A program made the position numbers and the translations under genes. Below the pieces are notes generated by a model. The model was not told the DNA's origin. It did no database searches and saw nothing but the letters and a program-made list of their open reading frames with translations. This document shows, piece after piece, positions 2,911 through 49,843 of a stretch of 64,000 bases of DNA (the stretch's first letter is position 1; the number at the start of each line of letters is the position of its first letter). Origin of the DNA: Raja brachyura (taxonomy: Eukaryota); contig OY740785.1 in assembly GCA_963514005.1 (NCBI GenBank), positions 40,982,001 to 41,046,000 of the forward strand, given 5' to 3'.

Positions 2911-4221
2911 CTAGTATAGTGTGATATGGGTCCCAGCATCACACGGGAGGGCTGGTCCCCCAACCCAATATTCCACCTCTCCACCAATTCCAGTGGGGGG
3001 AGGGCTTTCTGGAGCGCTAGTATGGGTGTTGTGGGCTGAAGGGACTGGTTTCCAGAGGGCTAGTATGGACATTGTGGGCTGAATGGATTCTTGGGCTGGT
3101 GGCTCAGCCACTCAAGCCTATTGTGCTGGCAGCTCACTCACGACTCGTGGGCTGGCAGTTGACACAGCTACTCCTTGAAATTCCATTTTAAGCAGCGTGC
3201 AAGGCCGCCAAATTCAAGTGCAGTTTCTTACCAGTTCAAGCAGGGTGCAAGGCCACTAAAGACAGCGAGTTGTGACCTCTCCCTCCTCCATCTTGCAGAG
3301 ACTGAGCCACGCTAACACTTCTTGGTTTTATAGTCCCTCCCCCTCCTACCAGAAGGGGAGTGGCCTGCATGGCATGATTGACAGGAGAGAGAGTCTCAAC
3401 ATCTTTTAAACACTAATAACTCTTTTATTTTTTATCGATGGGATAAATCCTCGGCACCTGATGAGTGGAGGGGGACTCTGAGTAAGATGGCCAAAAGCCG
3501 TACTTGGTAGTGTATTTAAAAAAAAAATCAATATAAAGTGCAAACTGGAAGTGGTCAAGATTAGACTTTTAATTATATAGAAGGCAAGGCAACTTTAATT
3601 AGGCAAGGCAACTTTAATTAGGCAAGTCAACTTTAATTAGGCAAGACAGCTTTAGCATTCCCATCCCAAAGGCAACACAACTTTAGCATTTCCAAACCAA
3701 AGGCAACACAGCTTTAGCATTTCCAAACCAAAGGCAACACAGCTTTAACATTTCCAAACCCAAGGCAACACAGCTTTAACATTTCCAAACCCAAGGCAAC
3801 ACAGCTTTAGCATTTCCAAACCAAAGGCAACACAGCTTTAGCATTTCCAAACCACATTAAGGGCACTGACAGGTCAGTAAAACCACTCACAGTTTAATAG
3901 ACATGTGTTCAGTGTTATTCACAACTCAGACTGAGTGACATGACCCTCTCGCTCCCCCAACCTGCAGAGACTGACAGAGACACTCAACACTTCAGGGTTT
4001 TATAGTCCCTCTGGAAGGGGCGTGGCCTTCTGGAGAGAAATCTCAACATTTTTTAAACACTAATAACTCTTTTATTTTTCATCGATGGGAAAAATCCTCT
4101 TGTCCTGTGCAGCGGAGGGGGACTGAGTAAGATGGCCAAAAATCTCAGCCAAAAGTGGCGACGTTTTTCTAAAATCAAAATACAGAACAACAGGAAGTGA
4201 TTAGACTTTTAGTAATATAGA
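2911..4221 (-). mobile_element. Non-autonomous Helitron, copy 1
   Basis: Minus-strand 5' end TCTATATTACTAAAAGTC at 4221 and 3' end CTAG at 2911 (hairpin decayed). Homologous to 34014-36129 and 49769-49843. A second, internal 5'-terminus-like TCTATATAATTAAAAGTC lies at 3581. Confidence 0.8.
3582..3853 (+). repeat. Compound minisatellite inside the Helitron: 19-bp unit x3 grading into 31-bp unit x~6
   Basis: aggcaaggcaactttaatt x3, then caaaggcaacacagctttagcatttccaaac x~6. Confidence 0.9.
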
Positions 4222-4710
4222 TGTTGGTGAGGCCACATAATGTATTTCATTTTGGGCACCATGGTGTAGGAAAGATGTCAAGCTGGAAAGGGTGCAGAGA
4301 AAGCCTCGAGGGCCTGAGCTATAGGGAGAGGTTGAGCAGGCTAGGACTTTATTCCTTGGACCACAGGAGGATGTGGGGTGATCTTATAGAGGTCTATAAA
4401 ATCATGAGAGGGATAGATCGAGTAAACGCACATTAGTAAACAGAGGACAGTTTAAGGTGAGGGTGGGAAAGATTTAATAGGAACCTGAGGCGTAACATTT
4501 TTACACAAAGAGTGATGATTGTACGGAAAAAAAACTGGTGAAGGAGGTAGTTGAGGCAGGTAATATTGCAATGTCTAAGAAACATTTAGATGGGTACATG
4601 GATTAGATACGTTTTGAGGGATATGGTCCAAATACAGGTAAGTGGGACTAGTTTGGGTGGGGAATGGTAGTCGGTGTGGACAAGTGGGCTGAGGGCTTGT
4701 TTCCATGCGG
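4222..4710 (+). mobile_element. Older CR1-clade LINE 3' fragment
   Basis: LVRPH...LSYRERLSRLGLYSL...GDLIEVYKIMRG. Confidence 0.8.
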
Positions 4711-9984: not shown

Positions 9985-12100
9985 GATAGCATCACGCAGG
10001 AAATTAGGGATGCGAGTAGCAAAGGTACAGCAATTATCATGCGTGACTTTAATCTACATATAGATTGGGCCAACCAAAATGGTAGTAGTGCTGAGGAGGA
10101 GGATTTCCTGGAATGTATACGGAATGGTTTTTTAAACCAATATGAAGAAGAACCGACTAGAGGGCGGGCCATCCTAGACTGGGTATTGTGCAATGAGGAA
10201 GGATTAGTTAGCGAACGTTGTACAATGCCCCCTGGGCAACAGTGACCATAATATGGTGGAATTCTGCATTGGGATGGAGAGTGACATGGTTAATTGAGGG
10301 ACTAGGGTCCTGAACTTAAAGAAAGGAGCCATTGAAAGTATGAGCTGGGAATTGGCTAGGATACACTGGCAAATTATACTTAAAGGGTTGATGGTGGAGA
10401 TACAATGGCAAAGATATAAAGACCGCACTGATGAACTCCAAAAAGTGTTTCATCCCTGTCTGGCGAAAAAATAAAAAGGGGAAGGCGGCTCAACCGTGGC
10501 TAGCGATCGAAATCAAGGATAGTATTAAATCCAAGGAAAAGGCATATAAATTGGCCAGAGGAAGCATCAAACTGGAGGACTGGGACATTTAGAACTCAAC
10601 AAAGGAGGACAAAGGGGTTAATTAAGAAGGGGAAAAAAGAGCATAAAGAAAGCTTGAGGGGAATATGTAAATGGAAATATGTAAAAAGAAAAAGATTAGT
10701 GAAGACAAATGTAGATCCCTTACAATCAGAGACAAGTGAATTTATAGTGGGACCAAGGAAATGGCAGAACAGTTAAGCAAGTGCTTTGGTTCTGTCTTCA
10801 CTAAGGAAGACAAAAAACAATCTATCAGGAATATGAGGGGACCGAGGATCTAGGAAGGAACAGAAGGGAATCCACATTAGTCAGGAAATGGTGTTAAGGG
10901 CCTGTCCCACCAGCATGCAACTCTATGCGATTAGCGCGACCTAACGTGGTCGCTTGAGCCGTCCGGCGTCGCGGGGCCAGTCCCACTTCGATCGCCGGAG
11001 CCGTGCGGAACTGTGCAGAGTTCGTCCCGAGTTCGTCTCGACACCGCGCGGGGCTCCGAAAAACTGACTATGTCCAAAAATCCCGCGCGGCAACGGCTTG
11101 TCGGCTCGCAGTTGCCTCGACATTTACACACCCTCCCGACATCGTGCCTCCGTGAACCTATTTGTAAGTTCCTCCGTGACCCTCTATGTGTGTGGCTCTG
11201 TGGCCCTGTGTGTGTGTGTGCCTCGGTGCACCTCTCTGTGTGCCCCTCTCTGTCCTGGCGAACTTACCTTAGACTTCGCTCCAAGTTCGCCTCACTTTGC
11301 GCCGCGTTGCGCCACTCACCCGGCCTCCGCATGGCCCCTACTGCCGGTTTGGTTGCGCTTGCCGCATGCAGGCGCATGCTGGTGGGAACGGCCCTGTACA
11401 GGGGATCACCCGACCTCCGCGCGGCTCCCGCTTCTAGTTTGATCGCGTTCATCGCATAGAGTTGCATGCTGGTGGGACAGGCCCTTTAGGTAAGCTGTTG
11501 GGACTGAAGGCAGATAAATCCCCAGGGCCAGACGGTCTGCATCCCAGAGTACTCAAGGAGGTGGCCTTAGAAATCGCGGATGCATTGGTGATCATTTTCC
11601 AATGTTCTCTCGACTCTCGATCTGTTCCTGTGGAAGATAGAAGATGGAAGATTGGAAGATAGCCAATGTAACTCTACTTTTTAAGAAAGGAGGGAGAGAG
11701 AAAAACAGAGAATTATAGTCCAGTTAGCCTCACTTCGGTAGTGGAGAAGATGCTTGAGTCAATTGTTAAATATGTTATAGCTGCACATTTGGAAAGCAGT
11801 GACAAGATCGGTCAAAGTCAGCATGGATTTATGAAGGGGAAATCATGCTTGACTAATCTTCTGGAATTGTTTGAGGATGTAACAAGTAGAATGGATAAGG
11901 GAGAAGCAGTGGATGTGGTGTATCTGGACTTTCAAAAAGCCTTTGACAACGTCCCACACAAGAGATTAGTGTGCAAAATTAGAGCACATGGGATTGGGGG
12001 TAAGGTATTGACATGGATAGAGAACTGGTTGACAGACAGGAAGCAAAAACGGGTCCTTTTCAGAATGGCAGGCAGTGACTAGTGGGGTGCTGCAAAGTTC
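9985..12100 (+). mobile_element. Degenerate CR1 ORF2 (APE endonuclease C-terminal half to RT N-terminal half), interrupted by a MITE
   Basis: DFNLHIDW...PTRGRAILDWVL; KSPGPDGLHPRVLKE; QHGFMKGKSCLTNL; YLDFQKAFD. Confidence 0.9.
10897..11485. mobile_element. PIF/Harbinger-type MITE 1
   Basis: Perfect 35-bp TIRs AGGGCCTGTCCCACCAGCATGCAACTCTATGCGAT; TTA TSD (10894-96 and 11486-88); removing it restores the CR1 sequence; CpG-rich, so probably young. Confidence 0.93.
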
Positions 12101-28576: not shown

Positions 28577-31500
28577 TGCCCCCGTCCCACTTAGGAAACC
28601 TGAACGGAAACCTCTGGAGACTGTGTGCCCCACCCAAGGTTTCCGTGAGGTTCCCAGTCACTCTCCGGGGAGACGGGGGGGGGGGGGGGGGGGAGACGGG
28701 GGGGGGGGGGGAGGACGGGGGGGGGGGGGAGACGGGGGGGGGGGGAGACGGGGGGGGGGGGGAGACGGGGGGGGGAGACGGGGGGGGGAGACGGGGGGGG
28801 GAGACGGGGGGGGGGAGACGGGGGGGGGGGAGACGGGGGGGGGGGGGAGACGGGGGGGGGGGGGAGACGGGGGGGGGGGGGAGACGGGGGGGGGAGACGG
28901 GGGGGGGAGACGGGGGGGGAGACGGGGGGGAGACGGGGGGGGGGAGACGGGGGGGGAGACGGGGGGGGGGAGACGGGGGGGGGAGACGGGGGGGGGAGAC
29001 GGGGGGGAGACGGGGGGGGGAGACGGGGGGGAGACGGGGGGGGAGACGGGGGGGAGACGGGGGGGGGGAGACGGGGGGGGGAGACGGGGGGGGGGGAGAC
29101 GGGGGGGGGAGACGGGGGGGGGAGACGGGGGGGGGAGACGGGGGGGGGGAGACGGGGGGGGGGAGACGGGGGGGGAGACGGGGGGGGGAGACGGGGGGGG
29201 GGAGACGGGGGGGGGGGAGACGGGGGGGGGGAGACGGGGGGGGGAGACGGGGGGGGGAGACGGGGGGGGGGAGACGGGGGGGGGGGGGAGGGGGGGGGGG
29301 GGAGGGGGGGGGGGGAGGGGGGGGGGTGGGGGGGGGAGACGGGGGGGGGGGGAGACGGGGGGGGGGGAGACGGGGGGGGGGGAGACGGGGGGGGGGGGAG
29401 ACGGGGGGGGGGGAGACGGGGGGGGGGGGAGACGGGGGGGGGGGGGAGACGGGGGGGGGGAGACGGGGGGGGGGAGACGGGGGGGGGGGGGAGACGGGGG
29501 GGGGGGGAGACGGGGGGGGGGGGAGACGGGGGGGGGGGAGACGGGGGGGGGGGAGACGGGGGGGGGGAGACGGGGGGGGGGAGACGGGGGGGGGGGGAGA
29601 CGGGGGGGGGGGAGACGGGGGGGGGGGAGACGGGGGGGGGGAGACGGGGGGGGGGGGAGACGGGGGGGGGGGGAGACGGGGGGGGGGGAGACGGGGGGGG
29701 GGGAGACGGGGGGGGGGGGAGACGGGGGGGGGGGGAGACACGGGGGGGGGAGACACGGGGGGGGGGGAGACACGGGGGGGGGGGGAGACACGGGGGGGGG
29801 GGAGACACGGGGGGGGGGAGACACGGGGGGGGGGAGACACGGGGGGGGGGGAGACACGGGGGGGGGGGAGACACGGGGGGGGGGGGAGACACGGGGGGGG
29901 GGGAGACACGGGGGGGGGGAGACACGGGGGGGGGGGGAGACACGGGGGGGGGAGACACGGGGGGGGGGAGACACGGGGGGGGGGAGACACGGGGGGGGGG
30001 GAGACACGGGGGGGGGGGAGACACGGGGGGGGGAGACACGGGGGGGGGGAGACACGGGGGGGGGGAGACACGGGGGGGGGGAGACACGGGGGGGGAGAGA
30101 CGGGGGGGGGAGAGACGGGGGGGGGGGAGAGACGGGGGGGGGGAGAGACGGGGGGGGGAGAGACGGGGGGGGGGGAGACGGGGGGGGGGAGACGGGGGGG
30201 GGAGACGGGGGGGGGGAGACGGGGGGGGGAGACGGGGGGGGGAGACGGGGGGGGGGAGACGGGGGGGGGAGACGGGGGGGGGAGACGGGGGGGGAGACGG
30301 GGGGGGAGACGGGGGGGGGAGACGGGGGGGGGGAGACGGGGGGGGAGACGGGGGGGGAGACGGGGGGGGAGACGGGGGGGGGAGACGGGGGGGGGAGACG
30401 GGGGGGGAGACGGGGGGGGGAGACGGGGGGGGGAGACGGGGGGGGGAGACGGGGGGGGAGACGGGGGGGGGAGACGGGGGGGGGAGACGGGGGGGGAGAC
30501 GGGGGGGGAGACGGGGGGGGGGAGACGGGGGGGGGAGACGGGGGGGGGGAGACGGGGGGGGGGAGACGGGGGGGGGGAGACGGGGGGGGGGAGACGGGGG
30601 GGGAGACGGGGGGGGGGAGACGGGGGGGGAGACGGGGGGGAGACGGGGGGGGAGACGGGGGGGAGACGGGGGGGGAGACGGGGGGGGAGACGGGGGGGAG
30701 ACGGGGGGGGAGACGGGGGGGGAGACGGGGGGGGAGACGGGGGGGGAGACGGGGGGGAGACGGGGGGGAGACGGGGGGAGACGGGGGGGAGACGGGGGGG
30801 AGACGGGGGGGGAGACGGGGGGGGAGACGGGGGGGGAGACGGGGGGGGAGACGGGGGGGGAGACGGGGGGGAGACGGGGGGGAGACGGGGGGGGGAGACG
30901 GGGGGAGACGGGGGGGGGGGGAGACGGGGGGGGGGGGAGACGGGGGGGGGGGGGAGACGGGGGGGGGGAGACGTGGGGGGGGGGGGGAGACGGGGGGGGG
31001 GGGGGGAGACGGGGGGGGGGGGAGACGGGGGGGGGGGGGAGACGGGGGGGGGGGAGACGGGGGGGGGGGAGACGGGGGGGGGAGACGGGGGGGGGGGAGA
31101 CGGGGGGGGGGAGACGGGGGGGGAGACGGGGGGGGGAGACGGGGGGGGGAGACGGGGGGGGGAGACGGGGGGGGAGACGGGGGCGGAGACGGGGGGGGAG
31201 ACGGGGGGGGGGAGACGGGGGGGGGGGAGACGGGGGGGGGGAGACGGGGGGGGGGAGACGGGGGGGGGGAGACGGGGGGGGGGAGACGGGGGGGGGGGGA
31301 GACGGGGGGGGGAGACGGGGGAAAACTATCTCCATTGTTTCTGCCCCCCATTCTCTCCCCTTCTCCCCCCTTCTGCTCCATACTCTCTCCTTCTCTCCCT
31401 CCCATGCTCTCTAAAGGACTTACCATGCTTTGTGGCAGCCATTAACTTTCCTCTTCAACACGCAGTAAGCGCTCCTCCGCTGTCCCTGGCCCCCACCTTG

Positions 31501-33333: not shown

Positions 33334-34219
33334 TTAGCAGATTACTGTACAAATAAATCTTGACAAAGAATTTTAAAGCCAGTCATCTGTCAAAAGCCTG
33401 ATGGAATAGGAATTAAAATCTAAATTTGTGTTCTTCTATTACTCTGGGGCAATCTTAACACCTGTTTTCTTAAGTGATTCAAGTAGTCATCAGACTCGAG
33501 CAGAAACCCTGTAAATAAAAATGAATTGATCTAATTTCTATCTTGTTACAATTTTAATGATGCTGGATATAATGACCACAAACGCTTTGCTCAGCCAAAC
33601 CTGGCAGTCAGCACAGCACAGTTCACAACCTGCTTTCTGCACAGTGTATAAATAGACTTGAGATAGTGTTCCTAAAAGGGATGTGGGGAAACAGTGATAA
33701 AAAGATCAAACATAATATTTTAACTTCTGTTTGACATTGGGATAAGTGTTCTTACAGACCTCTTTGGCAATCTTCCCAAACTTCAAATTGTGTGTATGAA
33801 CAGGGTAATTGGGGAACTACAACATATCATAGGTTTATAGCTTAGGTTTAAGGTGGGGGTGGGGGGGGGAAGATTAAATAGCAACCTATGGGGTAACATT
33901 TTCATGCAAAGGGTATGGAACGATCTGCCTGAGGAAGTGGGTGAGGCAAGTACTATCACAATGTTTAAGAAACATTTAGACAGCTACATTGATAGGACAG
34001 GTTTAGAGGGATACTAGACTAAGTTCACACGGGAGGGCTGGACCCCCGACGCAATATTCCACCTCTCCACCAATTCCAATATTGGTGGCCAGTGGGGGGG
34101 CTTTCTGGAGCGCTGATATGGGTTCTTAGGGTGGCAGCTCAGTCCCTCAGGCCTGATGTGCTGACAGCTCACTCATGGCTGGTGGGCTGGCAGTTGACTT
34201 ATGGCTATTCCTTGGAATT

Positions 34220-34765
34220 CCATTTCAAGCAGGGTGCAAGGTCACCAAATTCAAATCCATTTTCCGACCATTTCAAGCAGGGTGCAAAGCCACCAAATTC
34301 AAGTGCAGTTTCTTACCACTTCGAGCAAGGTGCATGGCCACCAAATTCAAGTGCAGTCTCCTACCACTTCAAGCAGGGTGCAAGGCCATCGAATTCAAGA
34401 GCAGTTTCCTACCACTTCAAGCAGGGTGCAAGGCCACTGAATTCAAGTGCAGTTTCTAACCACTTCAAGCAGGGTGCAAGGCCACCAAATTCAAGTTCAG
34501 TTTCATACCACTTTAAGCAGGGTGCAAGGCCACCAAATTCAAGTGCAGTTTCATACCACTTTCAGCAGGGTACAAGGCCACCACATTCAGTGCAGTTTTG
34601 TACCACTTCAAGCAGGGTGCAAGGCCACCAAATTGAAATGCAGCTTCATACCATTTCATGCAGGGTGCGACGCCATCACATTCAAGGGCAGTTTCATACC
34701 ATTCCATGCAGGGTGCAAGGCCACCACATTCAAATGCAGTTTCATACCATTTCAAGCAGGGTGAA
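34220..34765 (+). repeat. 48-bp minisatellite x~11 inside the Helitron
   Basis: ccacttcaagcagggtgcaaggccaccaaattcaagtgcagtttcata units; only ~1.5 units at the homologous site in copy 1 (3183-3258). Confidence 0.92.
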
Positions 34766-34814
34766 ACCACCATAAAACCACATAAAACACAAAACTCACA
34801 GTTCGTAGACATTC

Positions 34815-34961
34815 GGAGTGGGAGATTGCACCCTTCACGTGGTCCACCCTGTTTCGACGAATGCAATCAACCTGGCGTGCACAAACAGAAGATCAAACAG
34901 AACAAGTTGTCTTACAACTTCAGGCTGTGCACACCATACGCAAGAAGAAGAAGAAGAAGAA
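34815..34961 (+). mobile_element. 147-bp non-LTR retroposon with an (AAG)n tail, nested in the Helitron
   Basis: 10-bp TSD gtagacattc (34805-14 and 34962-71); ends ccatacgc(aag)7; the homologous sites at ~3895 and ~35805 are empty. Confidence 0.88.
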
Positions 34962-35285
34962 GTAGACATTCAGTGTGTTCAGTTGATTCACAGCTAAGAC
35001 CGAGTCGTGACGTCTCCCTCCCCCATCATGCAGAGACTGAGCCACGCCCACACTTCCGGGTTGTATAACCCCTCCCCCCCGAAAAGGTGTGGCCTTCATG
35101 GTGTGATTGACAGGAGAGAGATTCTCAACATTTTTTAAACACAACTAAAACTTTTATTTTTCATTGATGGGAAGAATCCTCTGCACCTGCTGAGCAGAGG
35201 GGGACTGAGTAAGATGGCCAAAAAATCACAGCCGTAAGTGGTAGCATTCTATCTAAAATCAATATGCAGTGCAAACAGGAAGTTA

Positions 35286-35760
35286 CCCAAAGCACCAAAG
35301 CCACCATTGGCAGTAGTGCCTTTTAACTTCAACCAAAAGCACCCAAGCCACCATTAGCAGTAGTGTCTTTTAACTTCAACCCAAAGCACCCAAGCCACCA
35401 TTGGCAGTAGTGCCTTTTCACTTCAACCCAAAGCAACCAAGCCACCATTGGCAGTAGTGCCTTTTCACTTCAACCCAAAGCACCCAAGCCACCATTTGCA
35501 GTAGTGCCTTTTCACTTCAAACCAAAGCACCCAAGCCACCATTTGCAGTAGTGCCTTTTAACTTCAGCCCAAAGCACCCAAGCCACTATTTGCAGTAGTG
35601 CCTTTTAACTTCCACCAAAAACACCCAAGCCACCATTTGCAGTAGTGCCTTTTAACTTCAACCCAAAGCACCCAAGCCACCATTTGTAGTAGTGCCTTTT
35701 AACTTCAACCCAAAGCACCCAAACAAACATTTGCAGGCAGTGCCTTTTTACTTCAAACCA
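35286..35760 (+). repeat. 47-bp minisatellite x~10 inside the Helitron
   Basis: cccaaagcacccaagccaccatttgcagtagtgccttttaacttcaa units. Confidence 0.92.
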
Positions 35761-36540
35761 ACCATATTCTCATTTTCAAACCACATTAAGGGCACTCACA
35801 GTTGAGTAGACGTGTGTTCAGTGCTATTCAGAGAGACGAGAACCTCTGGCTTCCTCCATCTTGCAGAGACTGAGTGAGGCACACCACTTCCTGGTTTTAT
35901 AGTCCCTCCCCCTTCCTCCAGCAGGGGCAGCAGAGAGAATGGCAAATTATTAAAAAACATTAATATCTCTCTGATTTTTCATCAATGGGAAAAATCCTCT
36001 GGTCCAGGAAGGCAGAGGGGGGCAATGAGTGAGCTATCCAAAAGTGAAGGCCATAGGTGGCAGCGTTCTCTTGGAAATCACACCACAGTGAGCCAAAAGC
36101 GGTCAAGATCAGACTTTTAGTAATATAGATGGGCCAAACGCAGGCAAGTGGGACTAGTGTAGCTGGGACCTGTTGGCCAGTGTGGGCAAGTTGGGCCGAA
36201 GTGCCTGCTTCCATGCTGTAAGACTCTTTGACACTATGTTAATTATCAGAGGTTTTACATTTTACAGACTGTGAGTTGATTATTTTGCATTCAGTTTCAC
36301 AATGAATTAATCTGCCAAAAATGCCGGCAGCACAACATATCTTAAAAATCATGGATACAGTGAATATCTTGTAGGACAAATATTCTAGAAACCTGTCTTA
36401 ATGATCCAGACACATGTACACATCTCATAATGACAGCACTGTGTTTTAAGCTCAATTAATTAAATAAATATGGATTTTAACATGCAAGTGGTGACCATAA
36501 AACCACGGGATTGATGTAAAAATGCAATTGATTCACTCAG

Positions 36541-48613: not shown

Positions 48614-48628
48614 GATTTGTTGGCCCTT

Positions 48629-49035
48629 AATGACAATGCCATGAGTTGTTTGGTCTGCTGCCCTGCCTGTGCTTGAAAGTGCGATGCTTAATTGGAAATG
48701 AAATGAAATGAAATGACAATGCCATGAGCTGTTTGGCCTGCTGCCCTGCCTGTGCTTGAAACAACAATTCTTTATTAGGTCCGACTATGTTTGGAAGGAA
48801 TAAATGGTTTATAGATCCGACTATGTTTGGAAGGAATAAATGTTTTATTAGGTCCAACTGTGTTTGGAAGGAATACATGCTTTATTAGGTCCGACTATGT
48901 TTAGTCCAAAAGTCCTGCTCATTTCGTGACTTCCGCTTAATGGACAGGTTGTGCTGATTGCGTAATTTCCGGTGAGTGCAGATGTCGCGCTGATTACGTA
49001 ATTTCCGGTAAGTGCAGAGGTCACGCTGATTGCAG
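48629..49035 (+). repeat. Stacked short tandem repeats (50-bp x2, ~37-bp x4, 36-bp x2-3)
   Basis: aatgacaatgccatgag...gcttgaaa x2; tattaggtccgactatgtttggaaggaataaatg x4; cgctgattacgtaatttccggtaagtgcaga repeats. Confidence 0.85.
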
Positions 49036-49768: not shown

Positions 49769-49843
49769 GAGAGGTGGAATATTGCGTTGGGGCACCAGCC
49801 CTCCCATGTGAAGCTGGGACCCAACGGGTCCCACTTAGTCTAG
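49769..49843 (+). mobile_element. Helitron 3' terminus, copy 3 (rest in the gap)
   Basis: Hairpin TGGGACCC-AAC-GGGTCCCA (49815-33), then CTTAGTCTAG|T; matches the ends of copies 1 and 2. Confidence 0.92.

Follow-up and report, generated by a model that had tools for sequence, protein, structure and literature searches.

A canonical, minisatellite-bearing Helitron family in the skate Raja brachyura, probably built stepwise from sister elements

Among described rolling-circle transposons, Helraiser and Helibat are close canonical relatives of the elements presented here, which share with them TC and CTAG ends, a hairpin some 10 nt short of the terminus and the amplification of retroposed passengers (PMC4778049, PMC5876387, PMC4224331). 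Further points in common are insertion between an A and a T (A/T insertion hereafter) without target duplication, a preference for AT-rich sites that is most marked on the 3' side (PMC4778049), RepHel homology (7LCC) and the formation of compound elements, such as HelibatN539, which joins the 5' end of one element to the 3' end of another (PMC4224331). Unlike both, the family here carries minisatellites and no host gene, and its partner copies are all broken. Heli2Xen and Helitron-N2_XT of Xenopus and Helitron-N1_DR of zebrafish also resemble it, in that the minisatellites of the autonomous copy fill the non-autonomous copies; they are described as Helitron2-type elements with a 166-bp unit (PMC12001565), whereas the present family is of the canonical Helitron1 type and has at least 10 units of 16-72 bp, one set per subfamily. 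In maize, the several 5' or 3' termini of multi-terminus Helitrons are likewise put down to nesting, and the elements prefer to insert near other Helitrons (PMC3288121, PMC12477314, the latter citing Yang and Bennetzen on maize Helitrons). In the maize cases it is mostly the 3' ends that are repeated; the present family stacks its left ends, and the insertions concerned hit the left terminus of another element or lie a few bases away from it. Finally, Cg_HINE (PMC7492417) and HelitronY1 of C. elegans (bioRxiv 10.64898/2026.08.08.743475) share with the family the non-autonomous rolling-circle dispersal of the tandem arrays they contain, flanks that are related even where the arrays differ, and two arrays in succession; Cg_HINE is a Helentron with subterminal inverted repeats and units of about 170 bp (PMC7492417), and no conserved pair of such repeats was seen at the termini of copy 2 or L060.

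Minisatellite-bearing and multi-ended Helitrons have already been published in Xenopus, zebrafish, C. elegans, oyster and maize, and the present family adds a further example of established Helitron habits, from another lineage, rather than an element of a new sort. The literature searched on sharks, skates and other cartilaginous fish yielded no account of a family like this one, which may however be catalogued in supplements, Repbase or Dfam, and the dogfish genome paper mentions Helitron solely in its reference list. The group has been described, from the elephant shark, as poor in DNA transposons (PMC4350176). The present data show a cartilaginous-fish genome with thousands of Helitron copies and with coding partners, the copies being a source of dispersed variable number tandem repeats (VNTRs); the family's series of subfamilies offers a rare, traceable record of the birth and replacement of minisatellite units and of the formation of compound Helitrons.

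We will refer to the whole 64,000-nucleotide stretch of DNA analysed as "the window". It contains three copies of the family (Table 1), for which a sequence-only reading had proposed a modular non-autonomous Helitron with TC and hairpin-CTAG termini, inserted at A/T without target duplication. The identification as a Helitron is borne out by the TC and CTAG ends, the A/T target and the RepHel-coding partners that share these ends. The description of the termini stands for the TC and CTAG of copy 2 and for the hairpin and the CTAG followed by T of copy 3, and fails for the hairpin of copy 2, which is missing, and for copy 1, where CTAG is followed by C. The reported module order (a 5' block and its array, then a second 5' block, the 48-bp repeat and finally the 3' end) was recovered in copies 1 and 2, as were the difference between their first arrays and the unequal lengths of their 48-bp repeats.

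Table 1. Helitron copies of the window and their modules (window positions; unit numbers from TRF where indicated)
Feature	Position	Strand	Remark
Copy 1, S31 (31/19-mer) subfamily	2911..4221	-	
Copy 1, A1 block	3855-4221	-	
Copy 1, 31-bp array	3639-3854	-	x7.0 (TRF)
Copy 1, 19-bp array	3582-3654	-	x3.8 (TRF)
Copy 1, inner B block	3259-3581	-	TC terminus intact
Copy 1, 48-bp repeat	3180-3258	-	x1.6, 79 bp
Copy 2, whole non-autonomous Helitron, S47 (47-mer) subfamily	34014..36129	-	2,116 bp
Copy 2, outer 5' block, type A2	35762..36129	-	TC at start
Copy 2, 19-bp anchor at end of outer 5' block	35779..35797	-	
Copy 2, 47-bp minisatellite	35285..35761	-	10.1 units (TRF)
Copy 2, inner 5' block, type B	34764..35284	-	without first ~30 nt of terminus; split by retro-insert
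(GAA)n-tailed short retroposed insert, within inner block of copy 2	34815..34961	+	147 bp
Target duplication flanking the (GAA)n insert	34805-34814, 34962-34971		10 bp
Copy 2, 48-bp minisatellite	34220..34763	-	11.4 units (TRF)
Copy 2, 3' region	34014..34219	-	26-bp x2.3 array and terminal CTAG
LINE-tail target of copy 2, left half	33913..34013	+	right half 36130-36238
Copy 3, 5'-truncated	48614..49033	+	70-bp remnant, 37-bp x3.7 and 36-bp x2.2 arrays
Copy 3, 3' end	49769..49843	+	hairpin 49815-49833, CTAG 49840-49843, then T of LINE

Copy 2 is a single old insertion of a non-autonomous subfamily of canonical (Helraiser-type) Helitrons. Its TC lies at 36129 and its CTAG at 34017-34014, with A before and T after, and the target is an A/T of a LINE tail. 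As the earlier reading held, no target duplication is present: the same LINE site is found empty at 4623, 25598 and 51976 of the window, and 20 of the 20 LINE matches that span the joined flanks are ungapped at the joint. The subterminal hairpin is absent from copy 2, about 21 bp being lost between 34022 and 34023, ahead of the last 9 bases. Helraiser without its hairpin transposes at about 9% of the usual level and reads through more readily (PMC4778049), so that further spread from copy 2 is improbable. The inner block is interrupted by a retroposed passenger which, like the 70/37/36-bp arrays of copy 3, had been overlooked; it occupies the identical site in 6/36 S47 copies and occurs free elsewhere with its own duplications. 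Elements of this (GAA)n kind, 140-150 bp in length, were found at L080, L104, L108, L119 and L155, and their assignment to Rex3 was discarded, since the tail given in PMC6274825 does not fit. A reading of the element as a structured RNA was ruled out by the lack of any Rfam match (E<=0.1) over 33700-36500.

Copy 1 had been taken for a clean complete copy; its 3' end is in fact aberrant, a short fold-back standing in place of the hairpin arm. Its outer 5' block is 70% identical to that of copy 2, the same value as between the outer and inner blocks of copy 2, so that the two copies represent different subfamilies and not one scaffold. Together with copy 3, they are members of three different subfamilies. 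The middle of copy 3 is N in the window; its 19-bp hairpin is intact (-9.3 kcal/mol), and its arrays are colinear with those of the RepHel-coding locus L113 (85% over 354 nt).

Genome-wide, the termini are consistent with those of the window. TC was read at 53/58 left ends, all of which had been collected by similarity to the terminus itself, and 49 of these 53 are preceded by A; 63/70 3' ends read CTAG, and a T follows in 95/95 distinct 3' ends, 29 of which came from a query including that T. Among 25 complete copies, 23 had flanks that overlap by at most 0-3 bp, one by 5 bp and one by 6 bp, lengths like those of random pairs, which agrees with insertion without duplication; spanning empty-site matches were obtained for 8 of the 25, and in seven of these eight they included matches ungapped at the joint. 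The features of canonical Helitrons (Helitron1/HLE1) are thus present, namely 5' TC, 3' CTRR, A/T insertion without duplication and a RepHel partner, together with a hairpin of 16-20 bp, set 10-15 bp ahead of the 3' terminus, which the family has and copy 2 lacks. Among the 95 3' ends, the hairpin is wholly lost in four and partly in four, with breakpoints that differ from that of copy 2 (a length rule had flagged 13 deletions, among them L049, L063, L073 and L102, which keep the hairpin, and L191, which is ambiguous); since these losses are few and have other breakpoints, the loss in copy 2 is a copy-level event.

Regarding abundance, the exact 28-nt motif of hairpin and end occurs 1,855 times in the genome, and its reversed control not once. 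First-look candidates, as lower bounds, numbered at least 539 for the 3' end and at least 1,513 and at least 1,564 for two left ends. The size of S47 is estimated at ~680 copies (1,020 exact 34-mers at 1.5 per copy) and that of S31 at ~2,700 (667 exact junctions, 3 in 12). Copies are 89-92% alike, and the family is therefore old. It is also present in related organisms (20 runs from 9 studies and 7 organisms, share 0.35-0.55), and contigs from four related runs cover every bin of the element.

A search of the genome for coding partners returned 96 matches to Helitron_like_N and 154 to PIF1. Both family ends flank three of 22 RepHel loci (L112, L113, L119), which answers the earlier call for a RepHel-coding partner with matching ends, and the 3' end is found at six more. 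L112 matches the left end of copy 2 at 83% over 241 nt and its 3' end at 93% over 76 nt; the frames of L119 match Helitron_like_N (PF14214) and PIF1 (PF05970) in Pfam, and Helraiser (7LCC) with an E value of 1.9e-48. Every coding copy examined is broken, and for this reason the partnership rests on the shared ends. Arrays are present in the masters too: in L119 the 33-mer follows the 5' block, L113 bears the 70/37/36-mers, and a 30-bp array at the 3' side is found in six masters. Several arrays are thus an inheritance from coding masters, and because masters carry the arrays of the 33-mer subfamily (S33) and of copy 3, these two types derive from them simply by deletion; masters bearing the 47-, 48-, 31- or 19-mer were absent from the 22 RepHel loci. 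The two best-scoring RepHel loci (C9, C775) were rejected as partners, as they belong to a related family with different left ends. A second RepHel family, apparently younger (89-94% alike, frames of up to 672 aa), has a related hairpin and other left ends, and was seen at L084-L085, L082-L083, L106-L111 and L125. Besides, four S47 left ends lie ~60 kb apart at G000 C11:44.03-44.21 Mb and RepHel copies recur at a spacing of ~123 kb at C47:3.8-4.4 Mb, a regularity that points to large segmental repeats.

The subfamilies differ in their repeat units and in the number of their 5' blocks. The left end of copy 2 was compared with 36 loci (40 matches minus the window and minus three of four near-identical duplicates), of which 12 have the S47 layout, 21 the S33 layout (a single 5' block, a 33/31-bp array and a 22-bp array) and three are truncated; the outer block of copy 2 is 91% like that of the single-block S33. 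For copy 1, the first 20 of 39 left-end matches comprise 14 of S31, three of S38 (38/41-bp unit) and three truncated copies. Most relatives have one 5' block and some have three. Other subfamilies are marked by units of 16-18, 36, 37, 40, 41, 49 and 65-72 bp and by (GT)n. Within S47, the 47-mer is repeated 3.1-67.7 times (median 9.3; 36/42 loci, those with all four modules present) and the 48-mer 2.6-11.6 times in the 36 copies; two other copies have 17-20 units of the 48-mer. The repeat unit is fixed per subfamily, and within S47 only the unit number varies. The fixed scaffold with variable slots proposed earlier has therefore to be amended: arrays vary in unit number, the unit itself is constant per subfamily, and the 5' blocks number from one to three.

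The first-slot arrays of the A-type subfamilies all start at the 19-bp anchor. In a comparison of 91 unit pairs against 60 shuffles, numbers for which only high z values count, likeness was found between the 47- and 38-mers (z 6.3), the 47- and 41-mers (z 5.3), the 31- and 36-mers (z 7.7) and the 19- and 36-mers (z 6.0), and none above z 2.5 directly between the 47- and 31-mers. A 41-mer built from 31- and 19-mer parts is seen in L124, L129 and L135-L137. As units are linked via intermediates and have one start anchor, we infer that new units arise inside the element, by recutting of older ones. At 29/29 loci the 47-mer was found in or on the element, and none of them was a free-standing satellite that had escaped; the 29 lie on the largest contig, among the first 100 of the 1,020 matches, and rare escapes may occur. 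The role of carrier is in this way demonstrated, and the "nursery" of the sequence-only reading is confined to the inside of the element, where units are recut at one anchor. The claim of the sequence-only reading that the family disperses VNTRs was sustained: two minisatellites have spread, by estimate, to several hundred places, with lengths varying twenty-fold.

The second 5' block had been read as a repeat of the element's own 5' block. In trees of 107 blocks (FastTree, support 0.998) and of a 47-row subset (IQ-TREE, 98/97), the inner blocks of S31, S38 and S47 cluster with free-standing B-type elements and the master L113, and topologies that force outer and inner blocks together are rejected (p-AU 3e-87 for S47 and 2e-32 for S31, with test groups named after the first tree). 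Self-duplication is accordingly discarded in both subfamilies, and the second block of copy 2 is, on these trees, the left end of a sister (B) lineage. The inner blocks of S38 and S47 form one clade (100/99), and S31 stands in a polytomy with them in the IQ-TREE analysis, so the double block may have one or several origins. The inner terminus is intact in S31, ~10 nt short in S38 and ~30 nt short in S47. Over the 100 nt that precede the anchor S47 resembles S33 (88-96%), and over the 40 nt that follow the anchor it resembles S38 (78-85%), from which it can be inferred that the front of S47 was swapped at the anchor, in a crossover between the 33-mer and the 38/41-mer lineages. A free-standing B block followed by the 48-mer and the 3' end occurs at L126 and L138. 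B-type starts are preceded by A in 30/37 cases, comprising 10 free-standing elements, nine S31-like inner blocks and 11 within TGGTTTGAAAA-type arrays, where the starts lie at A/T and blocks are stacked up to three deep. At the inner junction of S31, TC has a T in front of it in 94 cases out of the first 100 among 667 matches, hence plain nested insertion at A/T is insufficient unless a later deletion or a non-canonical target is invoked. TT is a minor target of Helraiser (PMC4778049), and either a TT target or a deletion junction would fit. The outer and inner blocks of S31 are 83% alike, which is little different from the 84% between S31 and the free B copy L022.

We consider it quite probable that copy 2 is an old Helitron moved in trans by now-broken RepHel elements and built stepwise from sister Helitrons. 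Transposition would have been supplied by RepHel elements sharing the family ends, and copies would land at AT-rich A/T sites, among them the left ends and arrays of family members. As rolling-circle copying would run from the outermost TC to the first working hairpin-CTAG, the resulting compound would move as a whole; at the anchor, deletion and template switching would then shorten the inner terminus and recut the unit of the first slot (33, 31, 36, 38/41, 47 bp), and slippage would change array length copy by copy. The (GAA)n passenger would have joined one master copy, and copy 2 would have lost its hairpin afterwards. A rival in line with the sequence-only reading is a fixed two-slot scaffold produced by internal duplication of the 5' block, its slots being filled with unrelated captured repeats. 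The module order shared by copies 1 and 2, the weak direct likeness of the 47- and 31-mers and the similar outer and inner blocks of S31 would suit it; we regard it as very unlikely, given that self-duplication is rejected in both S47 and S31, that single-block relatives predominate and triple-block ones exist, and that the units are tied through intermediates (47 to 38/41, 31 to 36, the mixed 41-mer of L124 and L129) and begin at one anchor.

Rolling-circle concatemers, joined head-to-tail from one donor and trimmed by later deletion, are reported as junctions and arrays in plants and bats (PMC5876387), and L193 (two S47 copies joined), the genome's four exact junctions of head-to-tail type and the mutual closeness of the stacked B blocks of L140 recall them. 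Adjacent pairs are nevertheless mostly of different subfamilies (L184, L020, L011, L017, L136, L206, L208, L209) and the two blocks of S47 come from separate lineages, which makes this origin unlikely for the element as a whole; concatemers may be the source of the triple-B types. In the coding partner of a Helentron or HINE, an endonuclease follows the helicase. In L113 and L112 no endonuclease ORF was found past the helicase, which stops at GQLYVALS and is followed by short repeat-derived frames. A Helentron/HINE-type (Helitron2) element, comparable with those of oyster and Drosophila, is suggested by the succession of left flank, central repeats and right flank, as in Cg_HINE (PMC7492417); together with the helicase data, the TC and CTAG ends, the A/T target and the lack of a conserved subterminal inverted pair at the termini of copy 2 and L060 rule out this identity, to which we give hardly any credence.

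With stepwise assembly from sister elements as the preferred reading, the choice of target deserves attention. Sequence flanking the 3' end is rich in A and T and has A at positions +10 to +12, and the target consensus of 88 flanks matches the family left end from base 3 (z 5.0 and 6.7 against shuffled flanks), a score to be read knowing that an AT-rich 3'-side preference is known for Helraiser, that TA runs may inflate it and that exact junctions are rare. A Helitron left end adjoins 7/95 3' ends (6/94 minus one selected for it), against 2/5,040 control windows. Copies thus favour the left ends of other Helitrons as insertion sites. The four exact A-type head-to-tail junctions, to be set against the 1,855 exact 3' ends, include at least three that join different subfamilies. 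A tentative and somewhat doubtful extension is self-targeting, in which the transposase would pick targets resembling its own left end and so stack left ends, while the anchor would recut the units, leaving a readable genealogy of at least 10 minisatellite units. If it is true that the target mirrors the left end, the long-noted clustering of Helitrons would be accounted for, and this can be tested with existing Helraiser data.

Several minor observations concern insertion sites. Ten of 88 insertions lie in three recurring sites of an abundant LINE (L049, L056 and copy 2; L021, L066, L080 and L105; L050 and copy 3). Family copies are also inserted into each other in inverted orientation (L094, L199, L124), including an S31-like copy in a coding element. 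Extra TCTA units precede the left end in 9/74 starts, compared with 50/1,965 control A/T sites; they were seen at the left junctions of L050 (three above the LINE empty site), L100 and L017 (~34), and the left end could be a source of (TCTA)n microsatellites. Elsewhere in the window, positions 10899-11489 (590 bp, with 24-bp and 90-bp repeats) are 93% identical to a piece inserted in L112, and this dispersed repeat is present also in L071 and L097. Positions 28667-31321 hold a 2.65-kb G-rich array of a 13-bp unit (~195 copies, GC 0.72) with a strong strand skew, which is likely to be prone to G-quadruplex formation.
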